Source: an uncultured Gammaproteobacteria bacterium
GTDB taxonomy: Bacteria > Patescibacteriota > Patescibacteriia > Magasanikbacterales > GWA2-37-8
Assembly: GCA_964355175.1 (NCBI GenBank)
Contig: CAYHBZ010000002.1
Span: forward strand, 332,537 to 396,536
Length of the DNA stretch: 64,000 nt
Direction of reading: 5' to 3'
Shown: positions 12,001 through 63,476 of the stretch, in pieces
How the letters are laid out: each line of letters starts with the position of its first letter
How positions within the stretch are numbered: position 1 is the first letter of the stretch
Translations under genes and position numbers: made by a program
The notes under the pieces: model-generated
Database searches by the model: none
The model's input: only the letters and a program-made list of their open reading frames with translations
Told to the model about the DNA's origin: nothing

Positions 12001-13290
12001 ATGTATAAAGTTCAAAAATTAAAAAATAAAATTACTCTGATCACGGTACCGCTTTCGGGTACCAAGGCTACTACTGTGCTCGTGATGGTGCCGGTAGGTT
12101 CGCGCTATGAGCACGAAAAAATTTCCGGCATCTCACATTTTGTAGAGCATGTGATGTTCAAAGGCACACATAAACGTCCAACCGCGCAAGATATTTCCCG
12201 CGTATTGGATGCGGCGGGAGCGGACTATAATGCTTTTACTAATAAAGACTATACCGGTTATTATGTTAAAATCGATTCTGCTCAACAGCGCCTCGCTTTT
12301 GATTTGATGGGGGATATGTTATTTAATTCCAAGTTTGAAGCGGTAGAAATTGAAAAAGAAAAAGGCGCAATTGTGGAAGAGTTGCGCATGTATGAAGATA
12401 ATCCTACAATGAATTTAGATACAGTTTATGAAAAACTGTTATTTGGCGATTGTCCTTTGGGTTGGGATGTCGGTGGTACAGAAAAAAGCGTACGCGGTAT
12501 TACTCACAGTGACATGTGGAATTATTATCAATCGGCTTATAAACCAGACAATATGGTATTGGTGGTGGCCGGTAAAATTGATAAAAAATTAAAAAATAAT
12601 TTGAAGTTTTTTGTAAATGACGATTATAAAAAGAATAAAACTAAGCAATCCATAAAGAAAGACACCTTTAAGAAATTTGCTTGGCCAAAAAATTTACCTT
12701 CTTTAAATGGTAGAGTAACGGTAAAAGAAAAAAAATTAGACCAGTCGCATGTGATCGTGGGTTTTCCTGGTTTATCACTAAATCATCCGGATAGATATGT
12801 GGCCACCGTATTGCTCAATATTTTGGGAGGCGGTATGAGCTCTCGTTTATTTGTGGAAGTGCGTGAAAAACGCGGGTTGGCCTATATGGTGCGAGCGGCC
12901 AGCAGTAATTATCGCGATGTCGGTACTATGTATGTTCAGGCCGGTTTGGATCCGGCGCGTTTGGCGGAAGCGATTCAAGTAATCCGTGCCGAACTGCAAC
13001 GCATAGTAAATGAGCCAGTAACAGAGAAAGAATTGGCCGATGCCAAGAGTAGTATTTGTGGACGAATGACTTTGGGCATGGAAGAATGTAGCTCTCAGGC
13101 CGAATGGTTTGCCAAGCAGTTTTTATTTTCCGATAAAATTAACACTTACGAAGAGGTGCTTGAAAAAATAAAAAAAGTTACGATAAAAGATGTCCAACGC
13201 GTCGCCGATAAAATTTTTGATTGGAAAGAAGTGCGAGCGGCCGCGATTGGTACTGTAAAAAAAGAAGATTTAATTAAAATTTTAAAATAA
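12001..13290 (+). CDS. M16-family (insulinase-like) zinc peptidase
   Basis: Inverted zinc-binding motif HFVEH (HxxEH) and pitrilysin-like layout. Confidence 0.85.
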   Translation: MYKVQKLKNKITLITVPLSGTKATTVLVMVPVGSRYEHEKISGISHFVEHVMFKGTHKRPTAQDISRVLDAAGADYNAFTNKDYTGYYVKIDSAQQRLAFDLMGDMLFNSKFEAVEIEKEKGAIVEELRMYEDNPTMNLDTVYEKLLFGDCPLGWDVGGTEKSVRGITHSDMWNYYQSAYKPDNMVLVVAGKIDKKLKNNLKFFVNDDYKKNKTKQSIKKDTFKKFAWPKNLPSLNGRVTVKEKKLDQSHVIVGFPGLSLNHPDRYVATVLLNILGGGMSSRLFVEVREKRGLAYMVRAASSNYRDVGTMYVQAGLDPARLAEAIQVIRAELQRIVNEPVTEKELADAKSSICGRMTLGMEECSSQAEWFAKQFLFSDKINTYEEVLEKIKKVTIKDVQRVADKIFDWKEVRAAAIGTVKKEDLIKILK

Positions 13291-13295
13291 AATAT

Positions 13296-14072
13296 ATGGC
13301 TAAAACCAATATTTATCTTTTCGCCAACTGGAAGATGTATTTGGATTTGCCAGAAAGTGAAAAGCTCGCAAAAGACTTTGCTAAGCTAGCTAAAAAATTG
13401 CCAAAGCAAATTAAAATGGCGGTTTTTCCAAGCGCCTTGGCTTTTGCTACCGCGGTGAAAGTATTGAAAAAAACTACGGTTGGCGTAGGGGCGCAGAATG
13501 TTTATTTTGAAGACAAAGGTGGTTTTACCGGGGAAGTATCGGCGGTCATGTATGGAAATAATGGCGCTAAGTATGCCTTGGTGGGCCATTCGGAACGCCG
13601 TCATCTTTTTCACGAAACCAATCACGAGGTGAGAATGAAAATGGAAGCTTTGCTCAGTGCCGGCATAGTGCCTGTATTGTGTGTGGGCGAAACTGCTGGG
13701 GAAAGAGAAAATCAAAAAACTGAAGATACTATTGAGATTCAATTGCGTGCCGCTTTGCATGCTTTGAGTTGGAGCAAAAACGCCAAATTAATTATCGCTT
13801 ACGAGCCGGTGTGGGCAATAAGCAAAGGCTCCGGTGTAGATGAGGCTGGCAAACATTGTGATCCGCTAGAAGCTGAACGGGTGCATGAATTTATCAAAAA
13901 GACCGTTTCGCAATTATTAAAAGATGTTGAATCGATTGTTTTATTTGGAGGAAGTGTGCGTGCCAACACCACCAAAGAATATTTAGAACAACCAAGTATT
14001 GATGGTGTTTTGGTTGGTGCCGCTTCTACCCACCTTGACAGTTGGAGAGAAATCACGCACAATGCCAGCTAA
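13296..14072 (+). CDS. tpiA: triose-phosphate isomerase
   Basis: ANWKM near the N-terminus, VGHSERR and other TIM motifs. Confidence 0.9.
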   Translation: MAKTNIYLFANWKMYLDLPESEKLAKDFAKLAKKLPKQIKMAVFPSALAFATAVKVLKKTTVGVGAQNVYFEDKGGFTGEVSAVMYGNNGAKYALVGHSERRHLFHETNHEVRMKMEALLSAGIVPVLCVGETAGERENQKTEDTIEIQLRAALHALSWSKNAKLIIAYEPVWAISKGSGVDEAGKHCDPLEAERVHEFIKKTVSQLLKDVESIVLFGGSVRANTTKEYLEQPSIDGVLVGAASTHLDSWREITHNAS

Positions 14073-14977
14073 TTATGTTGATTAATATCCTATTTTTATT
14101 GGTCATAGTGGCGTGTCTGGCCGTAATTGGTTATATTATTTGGAGTAAAATTCCACAAATTTCCAATTTGGATACTGTCAATTTACCTCAAGAAAAAACC
14201 AATCGCAAGAAAAATGAAATTATTTTGCGTCGTTTGGATGTGAAATCTCATGAGACCAAGCAAAAATTGGGACAGAAACTAAAACCCCTTCAAACGGTGT
14301 GGGGACAGATTCAGCTCAAGTTTAGAATTTATGTCGGTAAAATAGAGCGTTTACTTCATCATGAGCAGATGGTCAAAACCAAAAAAGAGCATAGTCAGCT
14401 CAGTAATGAAGAGCTAATAATCAAATTAAAAAGTTTGATTCAGGAGGGTGCGCAGTATTTGGAAAGTGGCAGTTTTGATCAGGCCGAACAAGCCTTTATC
14501 GGCGCTATCAAAATTGATGCCAAATCAGCCGACGCTTATCGCGGTTTAGCCGAAACTTATTTGCGCCGTGGTGCCAAAGAAGAAGCAAAACAAACTTTTA
14601 TATTTTTGCTCCAGCTTGAACCGGAAAATGACGCGGTAATGGTGCGGTTGGCTCAGATGGCTGAGGAGGATAACGATGTATATGAGGCGATTGAGTACTA
14701 TCAATTGGCCGTAGTGGCCAACGATGCACTTTCGCCACGCTTTGCCCATTTGGCTGAGTTGCTACTAAAAGTAGATCAAAATGAGATTGCCAAAGAGGCA
14801 ATAATGCAGGCGGTAGAATTGGAACCACAAAACCCAAAATATCTTGACTTTCTACTTGAAACTGCTATACTATGTCAAGATAAGAAATTGGCTACTGAGG
14901 CTTTTTCTAAATTACGCATGTCAAATCCGGAAAATTCGAAGTTGCCCGAGTTCAAATATCGCATTGACAGTTTATAA
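14042..14977 (+). CDS. membrane-anchored TPR-repeat protein
   Basis: N-terminal TM helix, then tetratricopeptide-like repeats (AEQAFIGAIKIDAKSADAYRGLAETY...). Confidence 0.55.
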   Translation: MERNHAQCQLIMLINILFLLVIVACLAVIGYIIWSKIPQISNLDTVNLPQEKTNRKKNEIILRRLDVKSHETKQKLGQKLKPLQTVWGQIQLKFRIYVGKIERLLHHEQMVKTKKEHSQLSNEELIIKLKSLIQEGAQYLESGSFDQAEQAFIGAIKIDAKSADAYRGLAETYLRRGAKEEAKQTFIFLLQLEPENDAVMVRLAQMAEEDNDVYEAIEYYQLAVVANDALSPRFAHLAELLLKVDQNEIAKEAIMQAVELEPQNPKYLDFLLETAILCQDKKLATEAFSKLRMSNPENSKLPEFKYRIDSL

Positions 14978-14982
14978 AATAA

Positions 14983-15055
14983 GCCGTTGTAGCTCAGTTG
15001 GTAGAGCATTTCCATGGTAAGGAAAAGGTCTCGGGTTCAAATCCCGACAACGGCT
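14983..15055 (+). tRNA. tRNA-Thr(GGU)
   Basis: Cloverleaf folded by hand: acceptor GCCGUUG/CAACGGC, D-arm GCUCAGUUGGUAGAGC, anticodon loop AUGGUAA, T-arm UCGGGUUCAAAUCCCGA. Confidence 0.8.
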
Positions 15056-15094
15056 CAAGTGAGCCTCTACTTAGATTCTCACATACCAAATTAT

Positions 15095-15170
15095 GCCGGC
15101 TTAGCTCAGTTGGTAGAGCAACGGTTTTGTAAACCGTAGGTCTAGGGTTCGAATCCCTAAGCCGGCTCCA
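15095..15170 (+). tRNA. tRNA-Thr(UGU), CCA encoded
   Basis: Acceptor GCCGGCU/AGCCGGC, anticodon stem ACGGU/ACCGU with loop UUUGUAA, T-arm UAGGGUUCGAAUCCCUA, 3' UCCA. Confidence 0.8.
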
Positions 15171-15194
15171 AGTTTCGTCCTTTTTCAATTTATA

Positions 15195-15203
15195 TGGTAT
15201 AAT
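15195..15203 (+). promoter_or_regulatory. extended -10 promoter element (TGGTATAAT)
   Basis: TGnTATAAT sits 5 nt upstream of the 15208 ORF. No clear -35 element. Confidence 0.3.
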
Positions 15204-15207
15204 GTAG

Positions 15208-15837
15208 GTGATACACACCAGTTGCTTTATGCCACAAAAAACTATTACAACAGAACAAGAAAAGTTAGTAAAGAATTTGTATATTCATGGAAAGATGGGG
15301 AAAGAAATTTCTTCCATCTCCGGCTTGTCTTTGAAACAAATATATAGTTCTCTCCGCCGTCAGAAAGTTCCAAGAAAAAGTTTGGCTGAACAAAATAAAA
15401 TTTTGTTTGAGAAAAAATTACCATCATTTAGGTTTAAAGAAAATTTAAATTTAAAAGACAGAGAACTCTTGATAGCGGCGATTATGTTGTATTATGGAGA
15501 AGGAGCCAAAACAGGAGTTACGGTAGATTTTATAAATTCAGATGTGCTGGTGGTAAAATTATTCTTAAAATTTTTGAGAAAAATTTGTCGAGTAAATGAA
15601 GATAAAATAAGATGTTACCTCTATTGTTTTGAAGATCAAAATATAAATGAATTAATAAATTATTGGTCGTCTCAATTAAAAGTTGGAAGGACACAGTTTA
15701 CCAAGCCTTATGTCCGTCCAAATGTTAATCGAGGCAATAGATCAATGCCTCATGGAGTGATACATGTTCGTTACGGAGATAAAAAGTTATTAGAGAAAAT
15801 TTTATATCTTTGCAAAGAACTAGTTAGCTCTTTATAA
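15208..15837 (+). CDS. hypothetical protein with an N-terminal HTH and a possible LAGLIDADG-like motif
   Basis: The N-terminus (..LVKNLYIHGKMGKEISSISGLSLKQIYSSLRR..) looks like a homeodomain-type HTH. LLIAAIMLYYGEGAKTG weakly resembles a single LAGLIDADG motif. The gene sits between two tRNA genes, directly upstream of the intron-containing tRNA-Tyr. The true start may be at M8 (MPQK...). Confidence 0.4.
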   Translation: MIHTSCFMPQKTITTEQEKLVKNLYIHGKMGKEISSISGLSLKQIYSSLRRQKVPRKSLAEQNKILFEKKLPSFRFKENLNLKDRELLIAAIMLYYGEGAKTGVTVDFINSDVLVVKLFLKFLRKICRVNEDKIRCYLYCFEDQNINELINYWSSQLKVGRTQFTKPYVRPNVNRGNRSMPHGVIHVRYGDKKLLEKILYLCKELVSSL

Positions 15838-15843
15838 AAAATT

Positions 15844-16118
15844 GGGCAGATACCAAAGTGGCTAACTGGGGCAGACTGTGAACAATTGCAGCTCTTAGAG
15901 GTAACTCTAGGATGAACTCTCTGGGATAACGGTGAAAGCTAATGGGGGTGCTAATACCGTGGGAACTTCGCAACGTGCGGAGAGCGCCGTAGAGACTAGA
16001 TACCAGAGTATCCCGATTCAGTTGGGATAAAGATATAGTCCATGCCGTAAGGAAACTTATGGATAAGTGAAATCTGCTGGCTCCGCCTTCGTAGGTTCGA
16101 ATCCTACTCTGCCCACCA
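15844..16118 (+). tRNA. tRNA-Tyr(GUA) split by a group I intron in the anticodon loop (exons 15844-15879 and 16070-16118, CCA encoded)
   Basis: The joined exons read GGGCAGA-UA-CCAA..UGGG-G-CAGAC-U-GUA-AA-UCUGC-UGGCUCCGCCUUC-GUAGGUUCGAAUCCUAC-UCUGCCC-A-CCA. This is a type II tRNA with a long variable arm. The anticodon stem-loop GCAGACUGUAAAUCUGC is identical to bacterial tRNA-Tyr. Confidence 0.75.
15880..16069 (+). other. group I self-splicing intron (IC3-like, ~190 nt) within tRNA-Tyr
   Basis: The conserved S element AAGAUAUAGUCC matches the group I consensus exactly at 16029-16041. The R-like element GUAGAGACUAGAUA at 15989-16002 supplies the P7 pairing GACUA/UAGUC. The 5' exon ends in U, which can pair with the internal guide GCAG near the intron start. 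The intron ends in G just before the 3' exon. Confidence 0.7.
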
Positions 16119-21228: not shown

Positions 21229-22575
21229 ATGACACATTTAAATTGGTTTAAATCAAGACAGTGGGCAAACGGGGATGTAGTAAATGACAAAAGTTTGTCT
21301 GAGTCTCACCGGTCGGTTTCTGTCCCAAAGTCTTTTTCTTTTTGGAGAAAAATGTTGGCTTTTTCTGGTCCGGGATATTTGGTGGCCGTAGGATATATGG
21401 ATCCGGGTAATTGGGCCACGGATTTGATGGGTGGTGCAAAATATGGCTATGCACTTTTATTTGTGGTGCTCATGTCCAGTTTGTTCGCTATGTTGCTGCA
21501 ATATTTATCGGCCAAGCTTGGAATTGTTACCGGTCGGGATTTAGCGCAAATTTGTCACGATAACTTTGGTAAGAAAACTTCTTTTTTCTTTTGGTTGATG
21601 GCTGAGATTATGATCATTGCCTGTGATTTGGCGGAAGTTATTGGATCAGCCATTGCTTTGAATTTATTATTTAAAATTCCTCTGGCCTTTGGTGTGATTA
21701 TCACGGCCGCCGATGTGTTTGTATTATTGCTTTTACAGAATCGCGGATTTAGATATTTGGAAGCGCTGGTGATTACGCTTATTATTACTATCATGGTGGC
21801 CTTTAGTTTGGAATTATTTTTTTCTCAGCCGGCGATCGTCGCTTTGCTGAACGGTTTTATCCCAACCGGTAATTTGTTTACCGATAAGGAAATGCTTTAT
21901 ATTGCCGTAGGTATTTTGGGAGCGACAGTGATGCCGCATAATCTATATTTGCATTCGGCAGTGGTGCAGACCCGTGCTTATGAGGAAACCGAGGAAGGCA
22001 AAAAAGAAGCCTTAAAATTTTCGGCCATTGATTCTACTGTCGCTTTATTGTTTGCTTTTTATATCAATGCCGCGATTTTGATAGTATCGGCGGCAACATT
22101 TTATACCCGCGGACTAAATGGTGTGGCTGAAATTTCTCAGGCCTATCAGCTTTTATCACCTCTGCTTGGCGCCAGTGCCGCTTCGATTTTATTTGCTATC
22201 GCCCTTTTGGCCTCTGGTCAGAATTCCACCATTACCGGTACTCTAGCCGGACAGATTATCATGGAAGGTTTTATAAATTTTAGATTGTCTCCATGGTTGC
22301 GTCGTTTGGTGACCAGATTGATAGCGATTGTGCCGGCCGTGATAGCAATTTTAATTTATGGTGACGGCAGTCTGACAAAATTATTAGTTTTGAGCCAGGT
22401 AATTTTAAGTTTGCAATTGCCGTTTGCGGTTTTTCCGTTGGTATATTTTACCGGCAGTAAAAAACATCTGGGAAATTTTGCCAATCGTCCTTTTACGAAA
22501 TTCTTGGCTTGGACTATTGCTAGTATAATAGTAATTTTAAATATTTGTTTACTGTATTTACTTTTCGTTAATTAA
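21229..22575 (+). CDS. mntH: NRAMP-family divalent metal (Mn2+/Fe2+) transporter
   Basis: GPGYLVAVGYMDPGNWATDL consensus, ~11 TM helices. Confidence 0.9.
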   Translation: MTHLNWFKSRQWANGDVVNDKSLSESHRSVSVPKSFSFWRKMLAFSGPGYLVAVGYMDPGNWATDLMGGAKYGYALLFVVLMSSLFAMLLQYLSAKLGIVTGRDLAQICHDNFGKKTSFFFWLMAEIMIIACDLAEVIGSAIALNLLFKIPLAFGVIITAADVFVLLLLQNRGFRYLEALVITLIITIMVAFSLELFFSQPAIVALLNGFIPTGNLFTDKEMLYIAVGILGATVMPHNLYLHSAVVQTRAYEETEEGKKEALKFSAIDSTVALLFAFYINAAILIVSAATFYTRGLNGVAEISQAYQLLSPLLGASAASILFAIALLASGQNSTITGTLAGQIIMEGFINFRLSPWLRRLVTRLIAIVPAVIAILIYGDGSLTKLLVLSQVILSLQLPFAVFPLVYFTGSKKHLGNFANRPFTKFLAWTIASIIVILNICLLYLLFVN

Positions 22576-22588
22576 ATTTTTAGCAGTT

Positions 22589-23332
22589 ATGAAGATACAT
22601 TTTTTGGGAACCAATGGTTGGTATGATAGCGATACCGGTAATACTATTAGCGCTTTAATTGATACCAAGGAGGCTTATATAATTTTGGACGCCGGTTTTG
22701 GTATTGCCAAAGCATCGGATTTTATCAAAGAAGATAAACCGGTTTTTTTATTTCTCAGTCATTTTCATATTGATCATATTTGTGGTCTGCATACTTTAAC
22801 CAAGATGAAGCTTAAACAACCGCTCACAATTATTAGTCATAAAGGACTCAAAAAAATGATGAGCACAATTTTTGATCACCCCTACGCCGCGTCCCTTAAA
22901 GAGTTGGGTTACAAAGTAAATTTAATTGAAGTAAAAGCCGGTAAATATAATTTGCCGGTGAAGTTTGATTGTCTGCCGCTACAGCATATTGATACTGATT
23001 TCGGTTATCGTTTTTATTTAGAAAATAAAATTATTACTTATTGTACCGATACTCATCCTTGTGCCAACGATATAGAATTGGCCAAAGATGCGGATATTCT
23101 TATTCATGAATCTGGATATTGGAAAGAAGTGCCTGGAGATTTTTGGGGACACTCTGATCCCGAGGGGGCAGCGAAGGTGGCCAAAGAGGCTGGGGTGAAG
23201 AAAATGTATCTTACTCAATTTGGACCAAATTCATTTAATACGCGTGCCAAGCGTTTGGATGCTCAAAGAAGAGCGCGTAAGATTTTTAAAAATACTTTCG
23301 CGGCGTTTGATGGCATCACGATAAAAATTTAA
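22589..23332 (+). CDS. MBL-fold metallo-hydrolase
   Basis: HxHxDH motif (LSHFHIDHICGL). Confidence 0.8.
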   Translation: MKIHFLGTNGWYDSDTGNTISALIDTKEAYIILDAGFGIAKASDFIKEDKPVFLFLSHFHIDHICGLHTLTKMKLKQPLTIISHKGLKKMMSTIFDHPYAASLKELGYKVNLIEVKAGKYNLPVKFDCLPLQHIDTDFGYRFYLENKIITYCTDTHPCANDIELAKDADILIHESGYWKEVPGDFWGHSDPEGAAKVAKEAGVKKMYLTQFGPNSFNTRAKRLDAQRRARKIFKNTFAAFDGITIKI

Positions 23333-23340
23333 TAAAAAAA

Positions 23341-23367
23341 TTCTCCATTATCTGGAGAATTTTTTTT
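23341..23367 (+). terminator. rho-independent terminator
   Basis: TTCTCCA-TTATC-TGGAGAA then T8. Confidence 0.8.
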
Positions 23368-23454
23368 CTACCACTGTCGACAAAATTTTGACTGCAAAGG
23401 TAGGCCGCACATCCTACCTCCTTTGGTTGGTGTGCGGGTAAATGACATGGTATC

Positions 23455-24204
23455 TCAGGTGCCGTACTGGGCGTGCTGGCGAAGTTGCTCCAGTTCCGCG
23501 GAGGTAGTCTCGATTTCTTCTGGATTCGCTTTCGCGTTTTCCAGAAGAGTCAGGACTTTGTCCACGGCCGTGCTGGCTTCGTCGCTTGACCAGTGCTTGC
23601 GTTTGCGTAGACGTGAAACCTCTCTCTGAGCTTGTCGCAGATAGGCCGACCTGATCCAGCTACGCCATCTTTCAATGTTTTGCCGGACGTAGGCGGGATC
23701 AGAGTAGTCGATGAGACTTGCCAGGATGTCGCCCGGCGAAGTATTGATCCAAGCTTTGTCTGGATACCTCTCCAGAGCCTGCTCGAGAATGTCCACGCGG
23801 CAGTTCAAGTACGCCGTCAGCATCTGTTCTTCCGAGAAAGGAGAGATGTCGACGTGCTTGAGCTTGAACAGCCTACAAATTCTTTTGACCTCCTTGATTT
23901 CGGTCAAGAAGTTTTCTCTCGCTGCCAGTGCTTCTGGCAACGATCTGGAGCTGCTCGACATCAGATCTGCACACCACACCGTGAGGTAGTGGCGAGCGAG
24001 TTGACGGCGTTCGTCTTCGTTCACGTGGCCCTTGAGATCCTGCAACTTCTGCAGTGCATCTTTCGGGTCGTTCCAGTTGCGCTCACCCAGCTCGGCGATG
24101 ATTTCTTGGTGTGCTTGTTTACGTTTCTTGGCGCGGTGCTTCTTGGCCATCACTGCGATGATGAAGACGCACGCGATAAATGCAACAATAACGGTGAGTT
24201 CCAT
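23455..24204 (-). CDS. orphan membrane-anchored protein encoded in high-GC islet 1
   Basis: 249 aa with an N-terminal TM helix, then a charged helical domain. GC is ~58% against ~38% in the flanks, with GC-rich third codon positions. No motif I recognise. Confidence 0.5.
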   Translation of the reverse strand: MELTVIVAFIACVFIIAVMAKKHRAKKRKQAHQEIIAELGERNWNDPKDALQKLQDLKGHVNEDERRQLARHYLTVWCADLMSSSSRSLPEALAARENFLTEIKEVKRICRLFKLKHVDISPFSEEQMLTAYLNCRVDILEQALERYPDKAWINTSPGDILASLIDYSDPAYVRQNIERWRSWIRSAYLRQAQREVSRLRKRKHWSSDEASTAVDKVLTLLENAKANPEEIETTSAELEQLRQHAQYGT

Positions 24205-24336
24205 TTGCCCCCCCTAGTAGAACTTTGTAGGCAGTAGACACCATGTCTAAAAGCCAAAATAAGTTGGTAGCTAAATACTGTATATTCGCTTACCAACCGA
24301 TTTTGGACTATTGTAAAAAGAACACGAATTTGGCGA

Positions 24337-24365
24337 ATTATAGCACAAAAGTTAGTTTTTGTCAA
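24337..24365 (-). promoter_or_regulatory. consensus sigma70 promoter (TTGACA-17-TATAAT) for the islet 1 gene
   Basis: The reverse complement reads cTTGACAaaaactaacttttgtgcTATAATtcg, about 130 nt upstream of the start at 24204. Confidence 0.5.
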
Positions 24366-27356: not shown

Positions 27357-27469
27357 TACAAAAAATTGACTTTTTTATAAATTAGTTTAATATATTCTCA
27401 AGTTTCCATCTGGCTATGGTATGCATGTCGCATACTTGGCATGAGAAGGAAAAGCCTGGGGGGATTATC

Positions 27470-27934
27470 ATGGACTTCGCTCTTACCCGCGGTTTTCGCA
27501 TTGCCGCGGAGATCATCATCATCCTGTCGGTGATCAGCATGGCGCTCGAGTGCATCGTGCTGTCTCTGGGTCTGTCCACGATGGCGGATCTGTCACACTA
27601 CATGGTCTCGACCGCCTTTTCGGCGTTCGTCGGCGGTGTCATGTGGTGGTATTTCGGTCTCCGCCACAACGCCTCCGTGATCAAGGCGTTGAAGTACTGG
27701 CGCGACGAGTTTCCACCGGTGGATTCTGTCGGGCTGTTTCTCGGGGTGACCTTCGTGATCATCTTCGTTCTGGTGTCGCTGTCGCAGCTCGTGCGCTGGG
27801 TCCTGCAGACTCACGCTGGTCTGGAGAGCTGGTGGATCCAGAACATGGTGATTGCCTTGGCTGCTTCTGCCATGTTCCTTCTAGCCATCGTGGCCGATGC
27901 TGTGCGTAGAAGGATGATTGACGGTCGCGATTGA
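27470..27934 (+). CDS. orphan 4-TM membrane protein encoded in high-GC islet 2 (alternative start 27416)
   Basis: ~60% GC. Four hydrophobic helices. TTGACT-16-TAATAT promoter at 27366-27393. The ATG at 27470 follows GGGGGGATTATC. Confidence 0.45.
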   Translation: MDFALTRGFRIAAEIIIILSVISMALECIVLSLGLSTMADLSHYMVSTAFSAFVGGVMWWYFGLRHNASVIKALKYWRDEFPPVDSVGLFLGVTFVIIFVLVSLSQLVRWVLQTHAGLESWWIQNMVIALAASAMFLLAIVADAVRRRMIDGRD

Positions 27935-28142
27935 GGTGGCGCGTCTTCGAACAAGAAGGAGGGACATGTCCATTCGTGCTCCGCCCCCAATAGGGGCGGC
28001 AGTGAGGAGGAAGAAACCATCGACCACCAAACTGCTTTTCATCTAAATGTACATTTGGATATAGAGCAGAGTGGTCGATGGTTTTTTTGTTTAGTTATGT
28101 TATAATATTTATTGAAGAAATATATTTATTACAGAATTAATT

Positions 28143-33311: not shown

Positions 33312-33340
33312 TTGACAAAACCACTATTTTATGCTATACT
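33312..33340 (+). promoter_or_regulatory. near-consensus sigma70 promoter (TTGACA-17-TATACT) for the islet 3 gene
   Basis: aTTGACAaaaccactattttatgcTATACTatt. A perfect 16-bp-arm palindrome follows at 33392-33438. Confidence 0.5.
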
Positions 33341-33501
33341 ATTCAGTTAGTTCTTTTATAACTATAATGACCAAGTCGTACCAAAAGAGGTAATGGGTAT
33401 CATATATTTCTAAAAAATAGGAATATATGATACCCATTTGCCTCCGGAACTTTTTCCTGAGGCGTTCGTTGGCTGGGTGCCAACATCCTTCAGGAGACAA
33501 G

Positions 33502-33909
33502 ATGAATCCCTCGGTTACTTATTGTGTGATTCTCGTCCGTGATGTGGTGGATGAAGAAGGGCGGAAGGAAGAGTACGAATCGCCGTTTGTTGTGACCAAG
33601 GAGTCACAGTGGTCGTTCGGGTTCTTGCCCGAAACGGACCAGGAGATCCGCTTCGGCGAATTCGGTGACAACGAGAAGGAGACCATCGCCAATGTAACCA
33701 TGACCAGGATCTATCCCGACAGTGGGCGGATGGTTATCTTTTGCAAGGTCAAGTACATGTGGGACATGCAGAGGTTGCGCACGCAGGGTTGGACGCTCGA
33801 AGGCTCTGTCCGTCTCGGTGCACCGGAGGTGGAAGTCCTGTACCAATGGCACCTCAATTGGGCGGATAATGGCTATAAGGACAAGGATCTCCAAGAAGCG
33901 GAGTTCTAG
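33502..33909 (+). CDS. orphan soluble protein encoded in high-GC islet 3 (alternative start 33427)
   Basis: ~57% GC. Starts MNPSVTYCVIL.. with the Shine-Dalgarno CAGGAGAC just upstream. No motif I recognise. Confidence 0.45.
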   Translation: MNPSVTYCVILVRDVVDEEGRKEEYESPFVVTKESQWSFGFLPETDQEIRFGEFGDNEKETIANVTMTRIYPDSGRMVIFCKVKYMWDMQRLRTQGWTLEGSVRLGAPEVEVLYQWHLNWADNGYKDKDLQEAEF

Positions 33910-34085
33910 TCCTCTGTCGTCAGCCCAACAGCCCCACTCGCTACAAGCGGGCAGTGGGGCAGACGCGGTAGATATCACTCGCCGCGCAATTTGAAAATAA
34001 CATATTTGTTTTCAGATTGTGCGAGTGATATAAACGCTTAAAAAATAAAACACACCAATTAAATTTGGTGTGTTTTTTGTTTTGT

Positions 34086-37600: not shown

Positions 37601-37655
37601 CCAAAATAATTATCGCCCCCCAGATCAGTTGTTTTTTAAAATTGAGGTACTTCAT
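34629..37655 (-). CDS. giant cell-surface protein: signal peptide, GH16/concanavalin-like domain, Thr-rich linkers, prenyltransferase/terpene-cyclase-like alpha/alpha-toroid repeats, C-terminal TM anchor
   Basis: HELDIEH matches the GH16 catalytic ExDxE motif. ..QEADGGFAYPGPF..TDGGWGCYDY.. resemble squalene-cyclase/prenyltransferase repeats. Long T/S-rich low-complexity runs. C-terminal VLAVTGGSAAALGLYLGLRLI anchor. Confidence 0.65.
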   Translation of the reverse strand: MKYLNFKKQLIWGAIIILGIVFVAGNSRAEENTTTTEETSSTSTTTVIEAETTQSTETNSTTTTTENFTPLILEAFGPTILDTIDFAGRTWKVRGGTGLPGITDTGIKNNWGNTDKDVFLDGSALHLRVSQHADDQKWYSSEVYLPASLGYGKYTFEINTRPDLLDHNLVAAPFLYQDDSHELDIEHSYWADETGSDNLFYVVQPGSKDGNKQISVATFSDGIFEDIIDWQPDKINFSTTQNGNTISSWTYTTSTDGSTNNFDPSNALVDINFWQYRGLIPTNNTTNEFIINNFTFDPYVAPTPEDTGSVASTASSTDLTVNLNIRYQNGFVFSGPVTLSTNTLITYNQGLTTSTTSTTVLTALINAAQNTTTFSISDLQLSDYGYYLNCLYIESIATSTCGNWNYVVNNVYPQVGMGSMTLNGGENIYIYFGDSWKITTPSNNVYINTSTPFYTWKYNYSDLSNEWVLDPNDLVAITIPNPTPTGWWDTDITVSTTLSNDQGVAYYNFSSTGTYSAKITDENYLKWSAPITLVVTDLPSNQNTTSTTSTSGGGSSSPSNQLISTTAIDSAVTKLINFIKTNQSADGKIIDAGTSDWLALTFAAKNIYAADVKNSSSSLYNYLYNYDSSLLDTELNSCAAYPRHILGLLASSVAKNDSKIIALKTKLDACVQNNIFGQTGINDDIFGLIAAIAIGEDQNSPVVQTTLSAIKANQEADGGFAYPGPFESPDLTGAAVNALKYAENNGATVNADIYTKAKQYLKNQQHTDGGWGCYDYTNGCAESDSLTTSWAVMGINALGEGQNEWFNSVGKNPWYILTTLNNDHFTQSWDGGIDWFGTKSAVPAMLGKSWPITLDPKSVTTGSGGSSEIIVIPTSTPTTTIATTTIATTTVATTTIATTTPATTTVVLATELPETKPVILVAQPTVKVVAVSPTTNNDSNNSSDNITSLKQQQQLSSAEKIEDKTSPIDDLPLDTPTRRTAKKVLAVTGGSAAALGLYLGLRLIKNVL

Positions 37656-38265
37656 ATTTCCAAGTTAGTGAATCGTTATTTTTTAAAATATAATTTGAGA
37701 TGCCCGTTTGCGCCGGTTTGCTATTGAGGTAGTAGATCCAGTATTTGCCGGCATTCTTATCGGTTTTGACTCCATCGATTTCATCTACGAAATATCCTAG
37801 GCTAGAAAATGGTTTGAAAATGGCAGTGATTTTTTTCTCGTCTACCAGCTGTGCCATCGCGTCATAGGCCGTAGATTTTTCGGCCATCAGCAATGAATAG
37901 TTTTGGCCGTTAATTATTATCGTAACACTCAGAGTATTTTTTTCTGGAATTGGAGTGGTGGTTGGGGTGGCTTCGGAAGGTGTGTCAGTCGCCACGTTAG
38001 AATTTTTTTGTTCAGGCTGTCTGGTTTCTTTTTTCTGTTCCGGTACGGTCAGAGTGGTGTTGGTGGCGACATCAGACCAAGGCAGACTTTGCGCCACAGG
38101 AGCGGGCGAGACTGGTTTGGGTGTCGCGGCTTTATTTGGCAGTAGCAGATAGGCGCCGCTAGCTAGGGCCATGAATATTAGGACCATCCAGAGCCGCGTT
38201 AGGTGTTTGTTATGCATATTGTTATTTAAAAAAGAAAAAACCCTTTCCCGGGAGAAAAGATTCAA
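37636..38265 (-). CDS. secreted/anchored DUF4430-domain protein (transcobalamin beta-domain-like)
   Basis: C-terminal ..SAYDAMAQLVDEKK..GYFVDEIDG..KYWIYYLNS..WKYEV.. matches the DUF4430 pattern. N-terminal TM helix and a Pro/Thr-rich linker. Overlaps the start of the giant surface-protein gene by 20 nt. Confidence 0.55.
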   Translation of the reverse strand: MNLFSRERVFSFLNNNMHNKHLTRLWMVLIFMALASGAYLLLPNKAATPKPVSPAPVAQSLPWSDVATNTTLTVPEQKKETRQPEQKNSNVATDTPSEATPTTTPIPEKNTLSVTIIINGQNYSLLMAEKSTAYDAMAQLVDEKKITAIFKPFSSLGYFVDEIDGVKTDKNAGKYWIYYLNSKPAQTGISNYILKNNDSLTWKYEVPQF

Positions 38266-38447
38266 AAATAGAACATTCCTGCTCGGGAAGAACTATTATT
38301 TGAAGACCGGACTTGTTCTCGACTTAGTCGAGACTTTACCGTTGCGGCACAGTGGAGGAATTGACCTCACTTCCACAAATAATAGGTTAAATTGTATGTA
38401 TAAACTATCAGGGTTCTAAGGCACTGTCAAAGCGGGTGTGGATAAGT

Positions 38448-59190: not shown

Positions 59191-59196
59191 AACAAA

Positions 59197-59224
59197 AATC
59201 CTCCAATAATTTGGGGGATTTTTT
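59197..59224 (+). terminator. rho-independent terminator
   Basis: AATCCTCCAA-TAAT-TTGGGGGATT plus T-run. Confidence 0.8.
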
Positions 59225-59318
59225 AATAGTGTAGTTCTGGCCGGCCCCCAACTACTTCAGCATTTGGACCTTGCGGTCCGTGTGCCTTTTCGTCGGGGGC
59301 CGGGTGGCAGGAACTTCT

Positions 59319-59588
59319 TCAGGCAGCGACGCTACGCATCTTGTCCGCGTGCAGGGTCTGGCTGCTAGAACGCAGCGAGCCGCTGATGTGCCGCAGGCCA
59401 GGCTTTTCGCCCAGACTCACGCAGAGCTCAGGACCCGACAGTACGCCCTTGAGCGCCAGGGTGAGTTGGTGCCCGCGTTCCATGTAGACCACGGTGAGGT
59501 GCTCGCCCCAGTCGGTGATGATCGTATGGCCACACTTGAGTTGGGGCCAGTTGTTCCGCGTGAGATCGCGGGCATTGAAGGTCGTCAT
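59319..59588 (-). CDS. orphan protein encoded in high-GC islet 4
   Basis: ~60% GC. Probable start at MTTFNARDL. The longer track ORF starts inside the promoter. TTGACA-17-TATAAG promoter at 59649-59677 on the minus strand. Confidence 0.4.
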   Translation of the reverse strand: MTTFNARDLTRNNWPQLKCGHTIITDWGEHLTVVYMERGHQLTLALKGVLSGPELCVSLGEKPGLRHISGSLRSSSQTLHADKMRSVAA

Positions 59589-59731
59589 TGTCGTGCCTTT
59601 GCTTGAGGTTGTTCTTGCCACACCATCCGGCTTTGGATGGATGTCATACTTATATACTAAAATAGCCATTTTGTCAATCTAGAAACAAAAAAATCTGTTC
59701 TTTTTAAACAGATTTATAAGTCGCTGATAAG

Positions 59732-59786
59732 CGGGTCGGACGGGACTCGAACCCGCAACTTTCCCGACTTAGTCGGGATGCTCTAA
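59732..59786 (-). other. 3' tRNA-like fragment: tRNA-Asp T-arm/acceptor plus a non-canonical anticodon arm (UCCCG-ACUAAGU-CGGGA)
   Basis: 31 nt are identical to the 3' end of the tRNA-Asp gene at 60613-60686. The anticodon arm is replaced. The fragment has no 5' acceptor or D-arm 5' half. Confidence 0.6.
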
Positions 59787-60560
59787 TCATTTTTTAGTTA
59801 GGTCTAATTTTTCGAAATAATTGGCTAGTCCTTTGCAATAATTTTCTACATCGTAAAATGGTAGTGGAAATTCGTAATCAAATAGTAGTTTTACCAAAGT
59901 ATCTGGAATAAATTTACCTTTTTTCTTTTTTGGTTCTCGTTTTAATTCCGGGTCGATTTCTTTTAATAGTGGGAAAATTTTTTTCGCGTAGTCTTCATAC
60001 CATAAGTTATCGAGTAAATCAGTATCTAAAGATTTTTTAGCACAATTAGCTATTTCTTTTATCAATCTGAGCCTGCTTGACTCAGCAAGCGCTGTCGAAT
60101 GGTTGTTGCATAAAATAGGAATAGGCAAACGACCAACTTTTTGCATACCGGATCCGGCGGGTTTAGTAGTTAAATAACCGTTCCAATGTTCGCTAACTTT
60201 ATTTCTAAAAAAATTAATTTCATAATAACTCGGTATATGTTTTTCTTTTTTTAAAACATCCCCAAGCTGATTAATTAGGCTGACTAATTGATAATAATCT
60301 AATGACACTTTAATTCCTTTGTCTTGCGATTCAATCATTTCTTGGGTAGTCATTTTAGTAGCACCAGATTTAGCATTCTTTGGCGAAGTTGTTATTGTTC
60401 GGGAATATGATATGTAAGCCACTCTTAAAATTCTTATGTGGTGTAGAACTTTACTTCCTAAAGGCATTAATTTACCGTAAGCTGGATTTCCTAAGGTAGA
60501 CTGATTTAAATCAGTAATCAACTTATCAAACGGTGATACTTTAAATGTTGGTGATTCCAT
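59787..60560 (-). CDS. hypothetical protein (257 aa) inside the repeat-flanked tRNA-Asp segment
   Basis: Its stop codon abuts the 3' tRNA fragment. No motif I recognise. ~30% GC. Confidence 0.45.
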   Translation of the reverse strand: MESPTFKVSPFDKLITDLNQSTLGNPAYGKLMPLGSKVLHHIRILRVAYISYSRTITTSPKNAKSGATKMTTQEMIESQDKGIKVSLDYYQLVSLINQLGDVLKKEKHIPSYYEINFFRNKVSEHWNGYLTTKPAGSGMQKVGRLPIPILCNNHSTALAESSRLRLIKEIANCAKKSLDTDLLDNLWYEDYAKKIFPLLKEIDPELKREPKKKKGKFIPDTLVKLLFDYEFPLPFYDVENYCKGLANYFEKLDLTKK

Positions 60561-60612
60561 ATTAAATTTAAATTAAAAAACTACCTTTCGGTAGTTTTTA
60601 TAAACCTCTCAG

Positions 60613-60686
60613 CGGGTCGGACGGGACTCGAACCCGCAACTTCTGCCGTGACAGGGCAGTGCTCTAACCAGTTGAACTACCGACCC
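60613..60686 (-). tRNA. tRNA-Asp(GUC)
   Basis: Reverse complement: GGGUCGG-UA-GUUCAACUGGUUAGAGC-A-CUGCC-CUGUCAC-GGCAG-AAGUU-GCGGGUUCGAGUCCCGU-CCGACCC-G. The T-arm and discriminator G match canonical bacterial tRNA-Asp. Confidence 0.85.
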
Positions 60687-60696
60687 GCTAAGGTGT

Positions 60697-60960
60697 CTAT
60701 ATTTTATTATAATTTTTAAAATACCAGACTATATACTTTCTATTTTTTGATTTTTTTAGTTTATTTTCCAATTTGGCTGATTCAGATCCGTTTTCACATT
60801 CAATCGTGCCTACGAGTTCCCAAGGTGAGCCTGTTCGAGTATAAATTTCCTCACCGTTGTTATGTTCTTTAAAGCGTCGTGCTATATCAATAGTTTTACC
60901 AATATAGTATTTATTGGTTTTTTTGCTAAAAAGCAAATAGACGCAATGTTTACCCTCCAT
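60697..60960 (-). CDS. GIY-YIG nuclease family protein (YhbQ/UPF0213-like)
   Basis: MEGKHCVYLLFSKKTNKYYIGKTIDIARRFKEHNNG carries the GIY..YIG..R..EH motif set. ~88 aa starting at the M that abuts the 5' tRNA-like fragment. The longer track ORF reads into that fragment. Confidence 0.7.
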   Translation of the reverse strand: MEGKHCVYLLFSKKTNKYYIGKTIDIARRFKEHNNGEEIYTRTGSPWELVGTIECENGSESAKLENKLKKSKNRKYIVWYFKNYNKI

Positions 60961-60973
60961 ATTATTATAGTAA

Positions 60974-61031
60974 CGAACCCGCAACTTTCCCGACTAAGTC
61001 GGGATGCTCTAACCAGTTGAACTACCGACCC
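60974..61031 (-). other. 5' tRNA-like fragment: tRNA-Asp acceptor/D-arm plus a non-canonical anticodon arm (UCCCG-ACUUAGU-CGGGA), truncated in the T-loop
   Basis: 26 nt are identical to the 5' part of tRNA-Asp. It shares ~43 nt with the fragment at 59732, which makes a direct repeat around the 1.2-kb segment. Confidence 0.6.
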
Positions 61032-61086: not shown

Positions 61087-61112
61087 ATTCCTCACTTCGT
61101 TCGGAATGACAG
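61087..61112. repeat. short intergenic repeat unit (TCCTCACTTCGTTCGGAATGACAG)
   Basis: Variant of the CCCTCAYTTCRTTCGGNATGACAG motif also seen at 61842, 62970 and 10001. Confidence 0.5.
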
Positions 61113-61272
61113 CGTACAAAAAATAAAAAAGGTCCTAGAAGTGTTCGGTATAAGCAATGAGTAAAGGAGGGGGTACTCACGCTCTACCAAACACTCTCAG
61201 GACCTTTTTGAATGTTTGTATATATATTATAACAATCTCATTTTGGACTGTCAAACGTTTTCTGTGGACAAC

Positions 61273-62465: not shown

Positions 62466-62519
62466 GTCGAAGTTTTGGCATTGCTTAGTCCGTCGGCGTT
62501 AAAGCTTCGGCGAACAAAG

Positions 62520-62915
62520 TGGAGGTGGCGAGAGTTGAACTCGCGTCCAAATAATTTTGAATATACCATCTACATGCTTAGGCTGCTTATTTTTTTAAGT
62601 TGATGGATAATAAACAGACGAAATTCCAGCAACCGAGCAAGATTTACTTTCGGCTATAGTCATCTTACAGTAACTAAAGCCTACTTTCCGTGAGTGACAC
62701 CGCTTTGCGTTACGGAACCTTACGCAGGCGATGGGAAGCGGTTATTAAGCCGCAACCGGAGCAAAGCTGAAGCTAGGGCTAAAAGCGCTAGCAAGAGCAG
62801 TCTTTACTTTTGATAACAAGTTTGCACTTATTATGTGTTTCGAGGATTTACGAGGTTCAAAACGCCCTCGGCATGCGAGTGTACTCAGAAACTTTTGTCA
62901 AAGCCCAGCACCCCC
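62520..62915 (-). ncRNA. ssrA: tmRNA (ssrA), ~396 nt
   Basis: Reverse complement starts GGGGGUGCUGGGCUUUG and ends ..GGACGCGAGUUCAACUCUCGCCACCUCCA (tRNA-like T-arm plus a 7-bp acceptor pairing with the 5' end). Internal tag reading frame GCA AAC UUG ... GUU GCG GCU UAA UAA, ending ..APVAA then a double stop. Adjacent to smpB. Confidence 0.7.
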
Positions 62916-63035: not shown

Positions 63036-63476
63036 TTAATCTTTTAAAGATCTTTTCATTTCTCTTTCGGTGTCGCGTTTCTTGATAGTTTCTCTTTTAT
63101 CGTATTGTTTTTTACCGCGACCGACAGCGATTTCCACTTTGATAAATCGATTTTTAGTATACACTGAAAGTGGCACGATTGTCAAGCCCTTTTCGGCCAA
63201 TTTTCCTTGTAAATAGCGGATTTCTCGCTTGCGTAGGAGCAGACGACGGCTAGCGGTGGGTTCGTAGTCGGGGAGATTGCCGGCTTGAGGGTATTTGCTA
63301 ATATTGGCATTAGTGAGATACGCATCGCCATTATGGAAGGTGACATAAGTGCCTTTTAGTGACATATGTCCGGCCTTTATGGATTTAGTTTCTTGGCCAG
63401 TCAACACCAAACCAGCCTGGAATTTTTCCAGGATTTCATAATCAAATAAAGCTTTTTTGTTACTGGCTAAGGACAT
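63036..63476 (-). CDS. smpB: SsrA-binding protein
   Basis: ..ALFDYEILEKFQAGLVLTGQE.. SmpB signature. 146 aa. Confidence 0.9.
   Translation of the reverse strand: MSLASNKKALFDYEILEKFQAGLVLTGQETKSIKAGHMSLKGTYVTFHNGDAYLTNANISKYPQAGNLPDYEPTASRRLLLRKREIRYLQGKLAEKGLTIVPLSVYTKNRFIKVEIAVGRGKKQYDKRETIKKRDTEREMKRSLKD

Follow-up and report, generated by a model that had tools for sequence, protein, structure and literature searches.

What are the short GC-rich segments, each with a gene of its own, that interrupt the housekeeping genes of a Magasanikbacteria-type chromosome? Four such segments (islets 1-4) lie in a 64,000-nucleotide stretch of contig CAYHBZ010000002.1 (assembly GCA_964355175.1, positions 332,537 to 396,536; 64 kb), which is referred to here as the window, and islet 1, at 23398-24245, is the one chiefly at issue. 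A first-pass annotation had taken islet 1 for one of a class of acquired single-gene cassettes, perhaps drawn from a high-GC host. Our own reading, to which we give a probability of about 0.6, is that the islets are moron-like, high-GC single-gene cassettes with portable frames, and that islet 1 is a fixed, fast-evolving and membrane-anchored member. Morons ('more DNA') are defined by their own promoter and terminator and by a deviant GC content (PMC3594210).

The compositional contrast is real, but its size had been overstated: the islet 1 interval has 53.5% GC and the whole window 41.0%, where about 58% and about 38% had been claimed. At third codon positions (GC3) the open reading frames (ORFs) of the islets lie at 0.66-0.75 (islet 1, 23455-24204, minus strand, 0.66; islet 2, 27416-27934, plus strand, 0.75; islet 3, 33427-33909, plus strand, 0.69; islet 4, 59319-59669, minus strand, 0.71), against 0.24-0.52 in all of the approximately 50 non-islet genes of the window. 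The GC-rich third positions that had been reported are thus borne out, and the base composition of the islets deviates from that of the surrounding genes, as the moron criterion demands. Ribosome-binding site (RBS) and promoter positions make the ATGs at 27470, 33502 and 59588 the likely true starts of islets 2, 3 and 4. GC at the three codon positions of the islet 1 ORF is 0.57, 0.39 and 0.66, and this ordering, GC3 > GC1 > GC2, is the signature of coding sequence. A common layout runs through all four islets: σ70 promoter, structured leader, high-GC ORF, GC-rich hairpin, long hairpin and intrinsic terminator. The three further islets (GC3 0.69-0.75) therefore do share the layout proposed for them, with promoters, hairpins and terminators of their own. 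At the level of sequence each islet, having its own promoter and factor-independent terminator, would be an independent transcription unit.

The genes around the islets are housekeeping genes of the candidate phyla radiation (CPR): Nramp, an MBL-fold protein, secA, DUF1653, secD, secF and DNA ligase, and further along the window CysRS, dnaX, type IV pilus genes, infC, rplT, smpB and transfer-messenger RNA (tmRNA). The islet flanks themselves (secA, secDF, Nramp, PPDK and DNA ligase) are those of a cellular chromosome, not of a phage or prophage.

Abrupt GC steps in metagenome-derived sequence invite the suspicion of chimeric assembly or binning contamination. This is refuted by the Logan assembly of a different run, ERR3856787, which matches the window at every position of a 10,069-bp stretch (100% identity) that takes in both islet 1 GC junctions. 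In a contig from SRR24858483 the sole difference along 1,045 bp is one added G in the G-run of the RBS. The exact islet 1 protein occurs on five contigs from ENA, NCBI and Logan assemblies, and six other related genomes have the same islet 1 arrangement. An artefact therefore has a negligible chance of being the explanation, and the earlier argument that the recurrence does not come from misassembly holds.

A further possibility is that the islets are genes for structured non-coding RNAs, their ORFs being chance by-products of high GC. Such genes are often high-GC islands in AT-rich genomes, the islets combine high GC with strong promoters, and the whole islet 1 coding sequence (CDS) folds with z = -4.3. 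Against this stand the three-base GC periodicity of the islet ORFs, the conserved protein motifs of islet 1 and its ratio of nonsynonymous to synonymous divergence (dN/dS) of 0.3, the confident AlphaFold2 (AF2) fold of its product, the lack of an Rfam match and folding z-scores over the first 450 nt that fall inside the range of ordinary genes. We consider this reading very improbable.

The portability of the frames is seen in islet 3 and its relatives, whose shared elements we call type A.

33312-33501, plus strand: islet 3 promoter TTGACA-17-TATACT (11 of 12 consensus positions) and structured leader of about 155 nt
33392-33438, plus strand: long hairpin of the leader; a second leader hairpin pairs with the Shine-Dalgarno sequence
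33502-33909, plus strand: islet 3 CDS, 135 amino acids (aa), a strict ORFan (GC3 0.69 for 33427-33909)
33932-34083, plus strand: type-A 3' module, with hairpin H1 at 33932-33959, hairpin H2 at 33972-34031, AAACGCUU and a terminator at 34047-34083

Behind a high-GC class-V aminotransferase gene, which lies at another site in L007, stands an element 94% identical to the long 3' hairpin of islet 3. Scanning metagenomes with the hairpin core gave nine loci, in genomes of 37-43% GC. In each of them the element marks the 3' border of a high-GC islet (0.55-0.67) 400-600 bp long, among varying neighbours (rpsG/rpsL, a glycosyltransferase, greA/lysS, ABC-F). Without two duplicates, and with the window and L007 added, these make nine distinct type-A cassettes. 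Their ORFs are mutually dissimilar by blastn and tblastx, yet the 3' modules behind them are 80-95% identical over about 150 nt (H1, H2, AAACGCTT and terminator), and the homology ends directly past the terminator T-run. Five pairs covary in the terminator. The sequence of H2 hardly varies over the nine loci, and it contains three G-U pairs that form on the sense strand only, which points to a role at the RNA level. A covariance model of the module gives matches of 114-134 bits and also detects divergent copies in L009 and L019, where the high-GC ORFs in front encode REC domains.

The 5' end travels in the same way. Four type-A cassettes with different ORFs share a leader of about 160 nt and the promoter TTGACA-17-TATACT; the leader contains a 25-bp hairpin with nine compensatory pairs and a second hairpin in which the Shine-Dalgarno sequence is paired, and folds with z = -7.65. 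Promoter and terminator thus recur with the cassette, and so are parts of it and not the host context around foreign DNA that has landed. No cassette module matched Rfam at gathering or permissive thresholds, and the type-A leader and the H1-H2-terminator module are candidates for new RNA motifs absent from that database. The cargo of islet 3 had no homologue but itself in the protein search, and its single-sequence AF2 model is uninformative (pLDDT, predicted local distance difference test, of 40).

Related genomes differ at the islet 3 site. In the sibling L004 the site is empty, and in this one empty/filled comparison the insertion sits right after the terminator of the upstream gene (...TTTTTG), the cassette itself ending in ...TTTTTTG. 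In L007 the site holds the same promoter with other ORFs and another 3' module. L007, the closest GTDB representative (secA 80% identical), carries larger high-GC blocks at the same two hotspots (12950-16046 and 21349-22382), which include the class-V aminotransferase gene (GC3 0.71) and four ORFans; cassette cargo is hence not limited to tiny ORFans.

Islet 2 shows the same kind of turnover between secA and DUF1653.

27366-27469, plus strand: islet 2 promoter TTGACT-16-TAATAT (9 of 12 consensus positions; recurs in L090 and L089) and leader; Shine-Dalgarno run of G6 at 27458-27463
27470-27934, plus strand: islet 2 CDS, 154 aa (172 aa from the start at 27416; GC3 0.75 for 27416-27934)
27981-28087, plus strand: 3' module, with H1 CCGCCCCC-AAUA-GGGGCGG at 27981-27999 and a long hairpin terminator at 28011-28087

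About four hydrophobic stretches, judged by eye, suggest that the product is a multi-pass membrane protein, of which only two relatives are known. L090 has the islet 2 cassette at the same secA-DUF1653 site. Between the window and L090 synonymous divergence (dS) is 0.13 in the cassette (dN/dS 0.68) and 0.62 in the adjoining end of secA; so low a value marks the cassette as younger than its flank and indicates that it spread horizontally not long ago. In L089 the islet 2 promoter, leader, first 72 codons, 3' hairpins and terminator stand in an unrelated neighbourhood of about 27% GC. The ORF there is chimeric (L089 1058-2139), its first 72 aa being homologous to islet 2 and its C-terminal half unrelated, which suggests recombination breakpoints inside cassette ORFs. 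Adjoining this chimeric cassette back to back is a second high-GC gene for a membrane protein, of 141 aa. At the same site L006 has an unrelated 224-aa high-GC ORF followed by a 3' module homologous to that of islet 2, and L004 is empty, with 7 nt from the secA stop to the DUF1653 start. The proposal of a class of single-gene cassettes is hence well founded: unrelated high-GC ORFs share 5' and 3' modules at different loci, and sibling sites are empty or refilled.

How might such cassettes move? They would be gained, lost and refilled with unrelated ORFs between related genomes, and we infer that they are most likely exchanged by homologous recombination, either in the frames or in the flanking genes. 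Alternatively, a dedicated recombinase or transposase might recognise the long hairpin H2, much as attC sites or IS200/IS605 ends are recognised, and possibly target intrinsic terminators. The near-invariance of H2 over nine loci, the hairpins at both cassette ends, the position of islet 3 between ...TTTTTG and ...TTTTTTG and the many unrelated loci would fit such a system, and flank homology cannot account for a first insertion. On the other hand, the cassettes are dispersed rather than arrayed, each has its own promoter, the attC R-box consensus is not visible and the sense-strand-only G-U pairs of H2 favour an RNA rather than a DNA role; nor did the window or the few neighbouring ORFs checked yield an integrase or transposase. 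We judge a dedicated system rather unlikely. Direct or inverted repeats at the islet boundaries were sought as marks of transposition, with no convincing case, and the motif TAGTTCTTTT, considered as a cassette marker, was not enriched.

Islet 1, in contrast to islets 2 and 3, has not turned over among the genomes compared.

24337-24365, minus strand: islet 1 promoter TTGACA-17-TATAAT with a TGn extension, 12 of 12 consensus positions; TATAAT or TATAGT in 7 of 7 orthologous loci
24205-24330, minus strand: 5' leader, hardly changed among relatives whose flanking genes have diverged at roughly half of their synonymous sites
24254-24306, minus strand: long leader hairpin, then CUUUU
24235-24249, minus strand: small leader hairpin UAGACA-UGG-UGUCUA
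24208-24214, minus strand: G7 Shine-Dalgarno run; a contig of another sample has G8 here and no other difference
23455-24204, minus strand: islet 1 CDS, 249 aa, with an N-terminal membrane anchor, a basic stretch and a helical-repeat domain of about 210 aa
23405-23437, minus strand: 3' hairpin H1, CCGCACA...UGUGCGG, in the consensus fold of six orthologues
23368-23405, minus strand: 3' hairpin H2, CCUACC...GGUAG, in the consensus fold of six orthologues
23334-23366, both strands: bidirectional intrinsic terminator with covarying stem pairs, which would end the islet 1 transcript and that of the convergent MBL-fold gene

The islet 1 promoter is one of only two 12/12 matches in the window, and the perfect TTGACA-17-TATAAT claimed for it stands, conserved at the orthologous loci. 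The GC hairpin said to end the transcript fares differently: the pairing at 23398-23419 exists but is not a terminator. Comparative folding prefers H1 and H2, of whose segments GGTAGG/CCTACC is an alternative pairing. Conservation is mosaic in 3- and 7-genome alignments, with the promoter and a leader of about 125 nt almost invariant and the 3' untranslated region (UTR) strongly conserved; a 39-nt core of the latter (within 23368-23437) is identical in L001-L005 and L087, and H2 and the terminator show compensatory changes. The leader hairpin at 24254-24306 with its CUUUU may be an attenuator. Two candidate ORFs were discarded: a short one in the 3' UTR, whose frame is not conserved between relatives, and a 201-aa antisense ORF, a shadow ORF that is not conserved in the orthologues and so not an overlapping gene.

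A search of 5.8 billion proteins returned only seven relatives of the islet 1 protein, at 50-58% identity, one of them annotated as from a Candidatus Magasanikbacteria metagenome-assembled genome. DNA context was recovered for six of the seven (L004, L006, L087, L088, L100 and L101); with the window these are the seven genomes compared here. In all six traced loci the orthologue is divergent from secA and, where the contig reaches, convergent with the MBL-fold gene. Its GC3 is 0.57-0.71 across the seven genomes, with low-GC flanks. The eight-member alignment contains invariant blocks (ELG..W, ARHY, ISPF.E, LE..LE..P, W(R)xWI..YLRQA and NAKA.PE.I), which show islet 1 to be a real protein family. 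L088 (1017-1490, minus strand) and L100 (533-1006, minus strand) have an extra 157-aa gene of GC3 0.77 between secA and the islet 1 orthologue, divergent from the latter and with its own TTGACA promoter.

The islet 1 gene is nevertheless far less constrained than its neighbours. Flanking proteins are 83-95% identical between these genomes and the islet 1 protein 54-58%. By the Nei-Gojobori method islet 1 has dS about 1.0, nonsynonymous divergence (dN) 0.32-0.35 and dN/dS about 0.3, compared with dS 0.85-1.2, dN 0.03-0.05 and dN/dS 0.03-0.06 for secA, MBL and Nramp, that is, a dN approximately 7 times that of the flanking genes at matching dS. The equality of dS means that the gene has co-diverged with its neighbours, under purifying selection but with much weaker constraint. 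Within it the proportion of synonymous differences (pS) is 0.5-0.7 over the first ~205 codons and 0.2-0.3 over the last ~48. From synteny and divergence, islet 1 is best described as an old, vertically inherited resident beside secA.

Its composition has not drifted towards that of the genome. Outgroup-polarised synonymous third-position changes number 8-14 from GC to AT and 9-12 from AT to GC (69 GC and 40 AT sites), with an implied equilibrium GC3 of about 0.6, against 0.35-0.4 or nearly so for secA. We also calculated the decay with two states, taking dS as ~0.45 per lineage, the share of GC-altering changes as ~93% and the equilibrium GC3 as 0.38; for passive amelioration to end at 0.65 today, the ancestral GC3 would have had to exceed 1. 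Balanced changes together with an impossible ancestor indicate that the high GC of islet 1 appears to be maintained, held at an equilibrium of its own and not decaying.

These results bear directly on whether the islets came recently from a high-GC donor, such as the host of an episymbiont, and are passively ameliorating. The strong compositional contrast favours such a donor, as do the absence of islets 2 and 3 from the sibling L004, the ORFan status of islets 2-4, the aminotransferase at the L007 hotspot, by which some cargo comes from ordinary gene families, and the presence of higher-GC Patescibacteria among the relatives. However, none of the four islet proteins has a homologue in any high-GC taxon (5.8 billion and 1.84 billion proteins searched), and homologues occur only in a handful of Magasanikbacteria-type contigs, which goes against the high-GC host that had been suggested as a source. 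The AT-rich promoter and terminator move with the cassette. For islet 1 in particular, synteny in seven genomes with dS equal to that of the flanks, the balance of GC>AT and AT>GC changes and the required ancestral GC3 above 1 all disfavour a donor, and the gene's conservation at the same site in 7 of 7 genomes with similar GC is what the first-pass annotation itself had said would refute its reading. A recent high-GC donor is unlikely.

Might the islets instead be native, immobile genes, whose GC-rich synonymous sites are selected for some RNA or DNA property (mRNA stability, escape from AU-directed nucleases, avoidance of internal promoters or terminators) and whose shared ends are common strong expression signals? 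The equilibrium GC3 of islet 1 through long vertical descent, the strong purifying selection on its leader and 3' UTR and the much greater absolute stability of the folded CDS RNAs agree with this. It fits poorly with 150-nt modules 80-95% identical behind unrelated ORFs of different genomes, with an islet 2 cassette younger than its flank and with sites whose occupancy and content vary between siblings, and the RNA structure is not above compositional expectation. This reading is quite improbable. Extra mRNA structure was rejected as the cause of the high GC, as the islet CDS z-scores of -0.2 to -2.5 fall within the +0.6 to -4.2 of ordinary genes. A GC3 shift of 25-35 points with sharp edges seems more than biased gene conversion at recombination hotspots could produce. 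Selection at the RNA or DNA level is possible, and so is a pool of cassettes that has a compositional equilibrium of its own.

We therefore return to portable single-gene cassettes. Islet 1 would be a self-contained monocistronic unit made up of a consensus σ70 promoter, a conserved structured leader whose hairpin resembles a terminator and whose RBS is poly-G, a high-GC ORF, two 3' hairpins and a terminator. It would be a long-resident member, and islets 2-4 younger members, of a class of cassettes in Magasanikbacteria chromosomes that sit in intergenic sites between housekeeping genes, their portable frames consisting of a promoter-leader module and a hairpin-hairpin-terminator module. Several points weigh against this. 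The window and the few neighbouring ORFs checked yielded no recombinase, integrase or transposase, and neither a donor replicon nor an insertion mechanism was identified. Nor does RNA folding explain the high GC, as the islet CDS z-scores are not outliers against ordinary genes. Islet 1 itself has not been seen to be mobile and may simply be a conserved gene of similar layout. Its dS values are near saturation and its polarised substitution counts small. Transcription, termination and translation are predicted from sequence. Finally, the function suggested for the islet 1 protein is read from topology, generic TPR-like fold matches and secA synteny.

By analogy, the closest known concept for the cassettes is the phage moron. 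Like morons such as HK97 gene 15, the islets are single genes between otherwise adjacent genes, with their own σ70 promoter and factor-independent terminator, a deviant GC content, a presence that varies among relatives and products that are in many cases small membrane proteins. Compared with syntenic relatives, islets 2 and 3 are extra DNA, the L004 sites being empty; islet 1, in all seven genomes, is not. Unlike morons, the islets are chromosomal, flanked by housekeeping genes of a cell (secA, secD, PPDK), the cassettes share conserved structured 5' and 3' modules around different cargo, and islet 1 is fixed and old. Three conserved cassette elements had zero matches in viral contigs.

Integron cassettes are also similar in their small, mostly ORFan cargo of deviant composition and in the conserved, imperfect hairpin of 60-70 nt 3' of the ORF; as in integrons, including dispersed attC sites without an integrase, one 3' element stands behind unrelated ORFs. 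The islet cassettes differ in having their own promoter and terminator, in occurring singly or as divergent pairs and not in arrays, and in the sense-strand G-U pairs of H2, which suggest an RNA element. No RYYYAAC/GTTRRRY core sites were found in the H2 alignment by inspection; intI and attI were not seen, and the window has no integrase. With non-autonomous elements of the IS200/IS605 type the cassettes share sub-terminal hairpins near both ends, a lack of terminal inverted repeats or obvious target duplication and, in a single empty/filled comparison (n = 1), an insertion directly 3' of TTTTTG; the 5' hairpin, however, lies within the transcribed leader, downstream of a conserved promoter. 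Neither TnpA nor TnpB was found in the 64 kb (of a genome of ~0.95 Mb), and a mechanism like that of IS200/IS605 is conceivable. Fast-evolving ORFans and acquired genomic islets resemble the cassettes in their narrow taxonomic range, elevated dN/dS, deviant composition and lack of known domains, and differ in that islet 1 is not ameliorating, is syntenic across the sampled clade and has conserved regulatory RNA structures. A type I toxin-antitoxin system was rejected: the cassette products have 89-249 aa (toxins <60 aa), several are soluble and one is an aminotransferase, and no antisense promoter was identified.

What the islet 1 protein does can be approached only through its architecture. 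A single hydrophobic N-terminal helix, which would hold the product in the cytoplasmic membrane, is followed by KKHRAKKRK. The positive-inside rule places the basic-flanked side of a membrane helix in the cytoplasm, and hence the domain of ~210 residues would face the cytoplasm. AF2, given an eight-sequence alignment, models the protein as all-helical (pLDDT 86; predicted template modelling score, pTM, 0.73). No significant match to it was found in Pfam, PHROG, PADLOC, NCBIfam or PDB sequences, in keeping with its earlier description as a 249-aa orphan with a transmembrane anchor, a helical domain and no recognised motif; Foldseek gave no match among viral structures. Most plausibly, on generic fold matches, the protein might be a membrane-tethered binding scaffold with a cytoplasmic helical-repeat domain like that of tetratricopeptide repeat (TPR) proteins. 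Adjacency to secA in 7 of 7 genomes makes a role linked to the Sec machinery possible; by analogy with moron membrane proteins, its fast evolution and strong constitutive promoter make a role in conflict or exclusion possible too. For the four islet proteins together, Pfam, PHROGs, PADLOC and NCBIfam gave nothing significant, and Pfam and PADLOC searches of the relatives' cassette proteins gave only the aminotransferase and REC domains. The MBL-fold gene convergent with islet 1 (22589-23332, plus strand) matches Pfam Anti-Pycsar Apyc1 in precomputed annotation; at 95% identity in siblings it behaves as a core gene and not as a phage-derived one.

The RBSs of islets 1 and 2 are themselves unusual. 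Only three G or C runs of at least 6 occur in the window, and two of them are the RBSs of islet 1 (G7, the longest) and islet 2 (G6). When assemblies are compared, G7 versus G8 (L003 194-201) is the sole difference between the window and an independent sample in 1,045 bp, and orthologous cassettes carry a G8 run (for islet 2, G6 versus G8 in L090). Such length differences (G7/G8, G6/G8) resemble those of homopolymer-tract contingency loci, although a one-base change between assemblies may be an assembly error. The runs could be phase-variable or 'volume-knob' tracts, or homopolymer assembly errors.

Literature searches returned no description of these cassettes; horizontal gene transfer in Patescibacteria has been described in general (PMC12455944). 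Tentatively, and with the odds against it, the islets may belong to an undescribed chromosomal cassette system of Magasanikbacteria, and perhaps of other CPR, in which diverse small high-GC ORFs are picked up by frames, expressed from them and spread to intergenic sites or terminators, with GC actively maintained and poly-G RBSs acting as switches. The frames of this putative system would consist of a 5' promoter and riboregulatory leader and, on the 3' side, a GC hairpin, an invariant long hairpin and a terminator. If true, this would be a flexible pool of genes that resembles integrons but works by another mechanism, and that may serve host interaction or phage defence in episymbionts. CPR genomes are tiny, and how they gain and turn over accessory functions is poorly understood. 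Conserved frames re-used around mostly ORFan genes, many membrane-bound or secreted in appearance, and exchanged at hotspots between essential genes, would offer a concrete and testable route of accessory-gene flow. The 65% GC3 of islet 1, kept in a genome of 38% GC3 through synonymous saturation, challenges the equation of deviant GC with recent foreign DNA.

The fourth islet has the features below.

59652-59680, minus strand: islet 4 promoter TTGACA-17-TATAAG, 11 of 12 consensus positions, read from sequence
59319-59588, minus strand: islet 4 CDS, 89 aa, an ORFan (GC3 0.71 for the containing ORF, 59319-59669)
59194-59303, minus strand: 3' module, with a GC-rich hairpin CCGGCCCCCGAC...GUUGGGGGCCGG at 59241-59303 and a shared bidirectional terminator at 59194-59223

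Its product had no homologue among 1.84 billion cluster representatives. Islet 4 lies directly beside a tRNA-Asp region (59730-61020) that looks like integration scars at a tRNA gene. Near tRNA-Asp (60612-60686) are two partial tRNA-like copies: 59730-59761 is 100% identical to its 3' end, and 59748-59792 and 60974-61018 are 93% identical to each other with a different anticodon arm. The copies bracket a GIY-YIG ORF of 95 aa (60697-60984) and a low-GC ORFan of 257 aa (59787-60560).

Other features of the window stand apart from the islets. The second perfect TTGACA-17-TATAAT promoter (61254-61226, minus strand) lies just downstream of rplT and is followed by a large hairpin of ~100 nt, AAAAAGGUCCUGAGAG...CUUCUAGGACCUUUUUU, that ends in a T-run and matches no Rfam family; the region (61110-61254, minus strand) looks like a small RNA gene. 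An adenosylcobalamin (AdoCbl, B12) riboswitch at 38268-38401 (minus strand), just at the Rfam gathering score (51.9 versus 50 bits), precedes a DUF4430 gene (37636-38265) and the gene for a 1,008-aa protein with a squalene-hopene-cyclase-C-like repeat. A group I intron match at 15850-16062 (plus strand), likewise at the gathering threshold (50.6 versus 50 bits), lies between a 209-aa ORFan (15208-15837) and a DUF1189 gene. The tmRNA at 62519-62915 (minus strand), with smpB nearby at 63036-63476, has an unusually long predicted tag peptide, ANLLSKVKTALASAFSPSFSFAPVAA.

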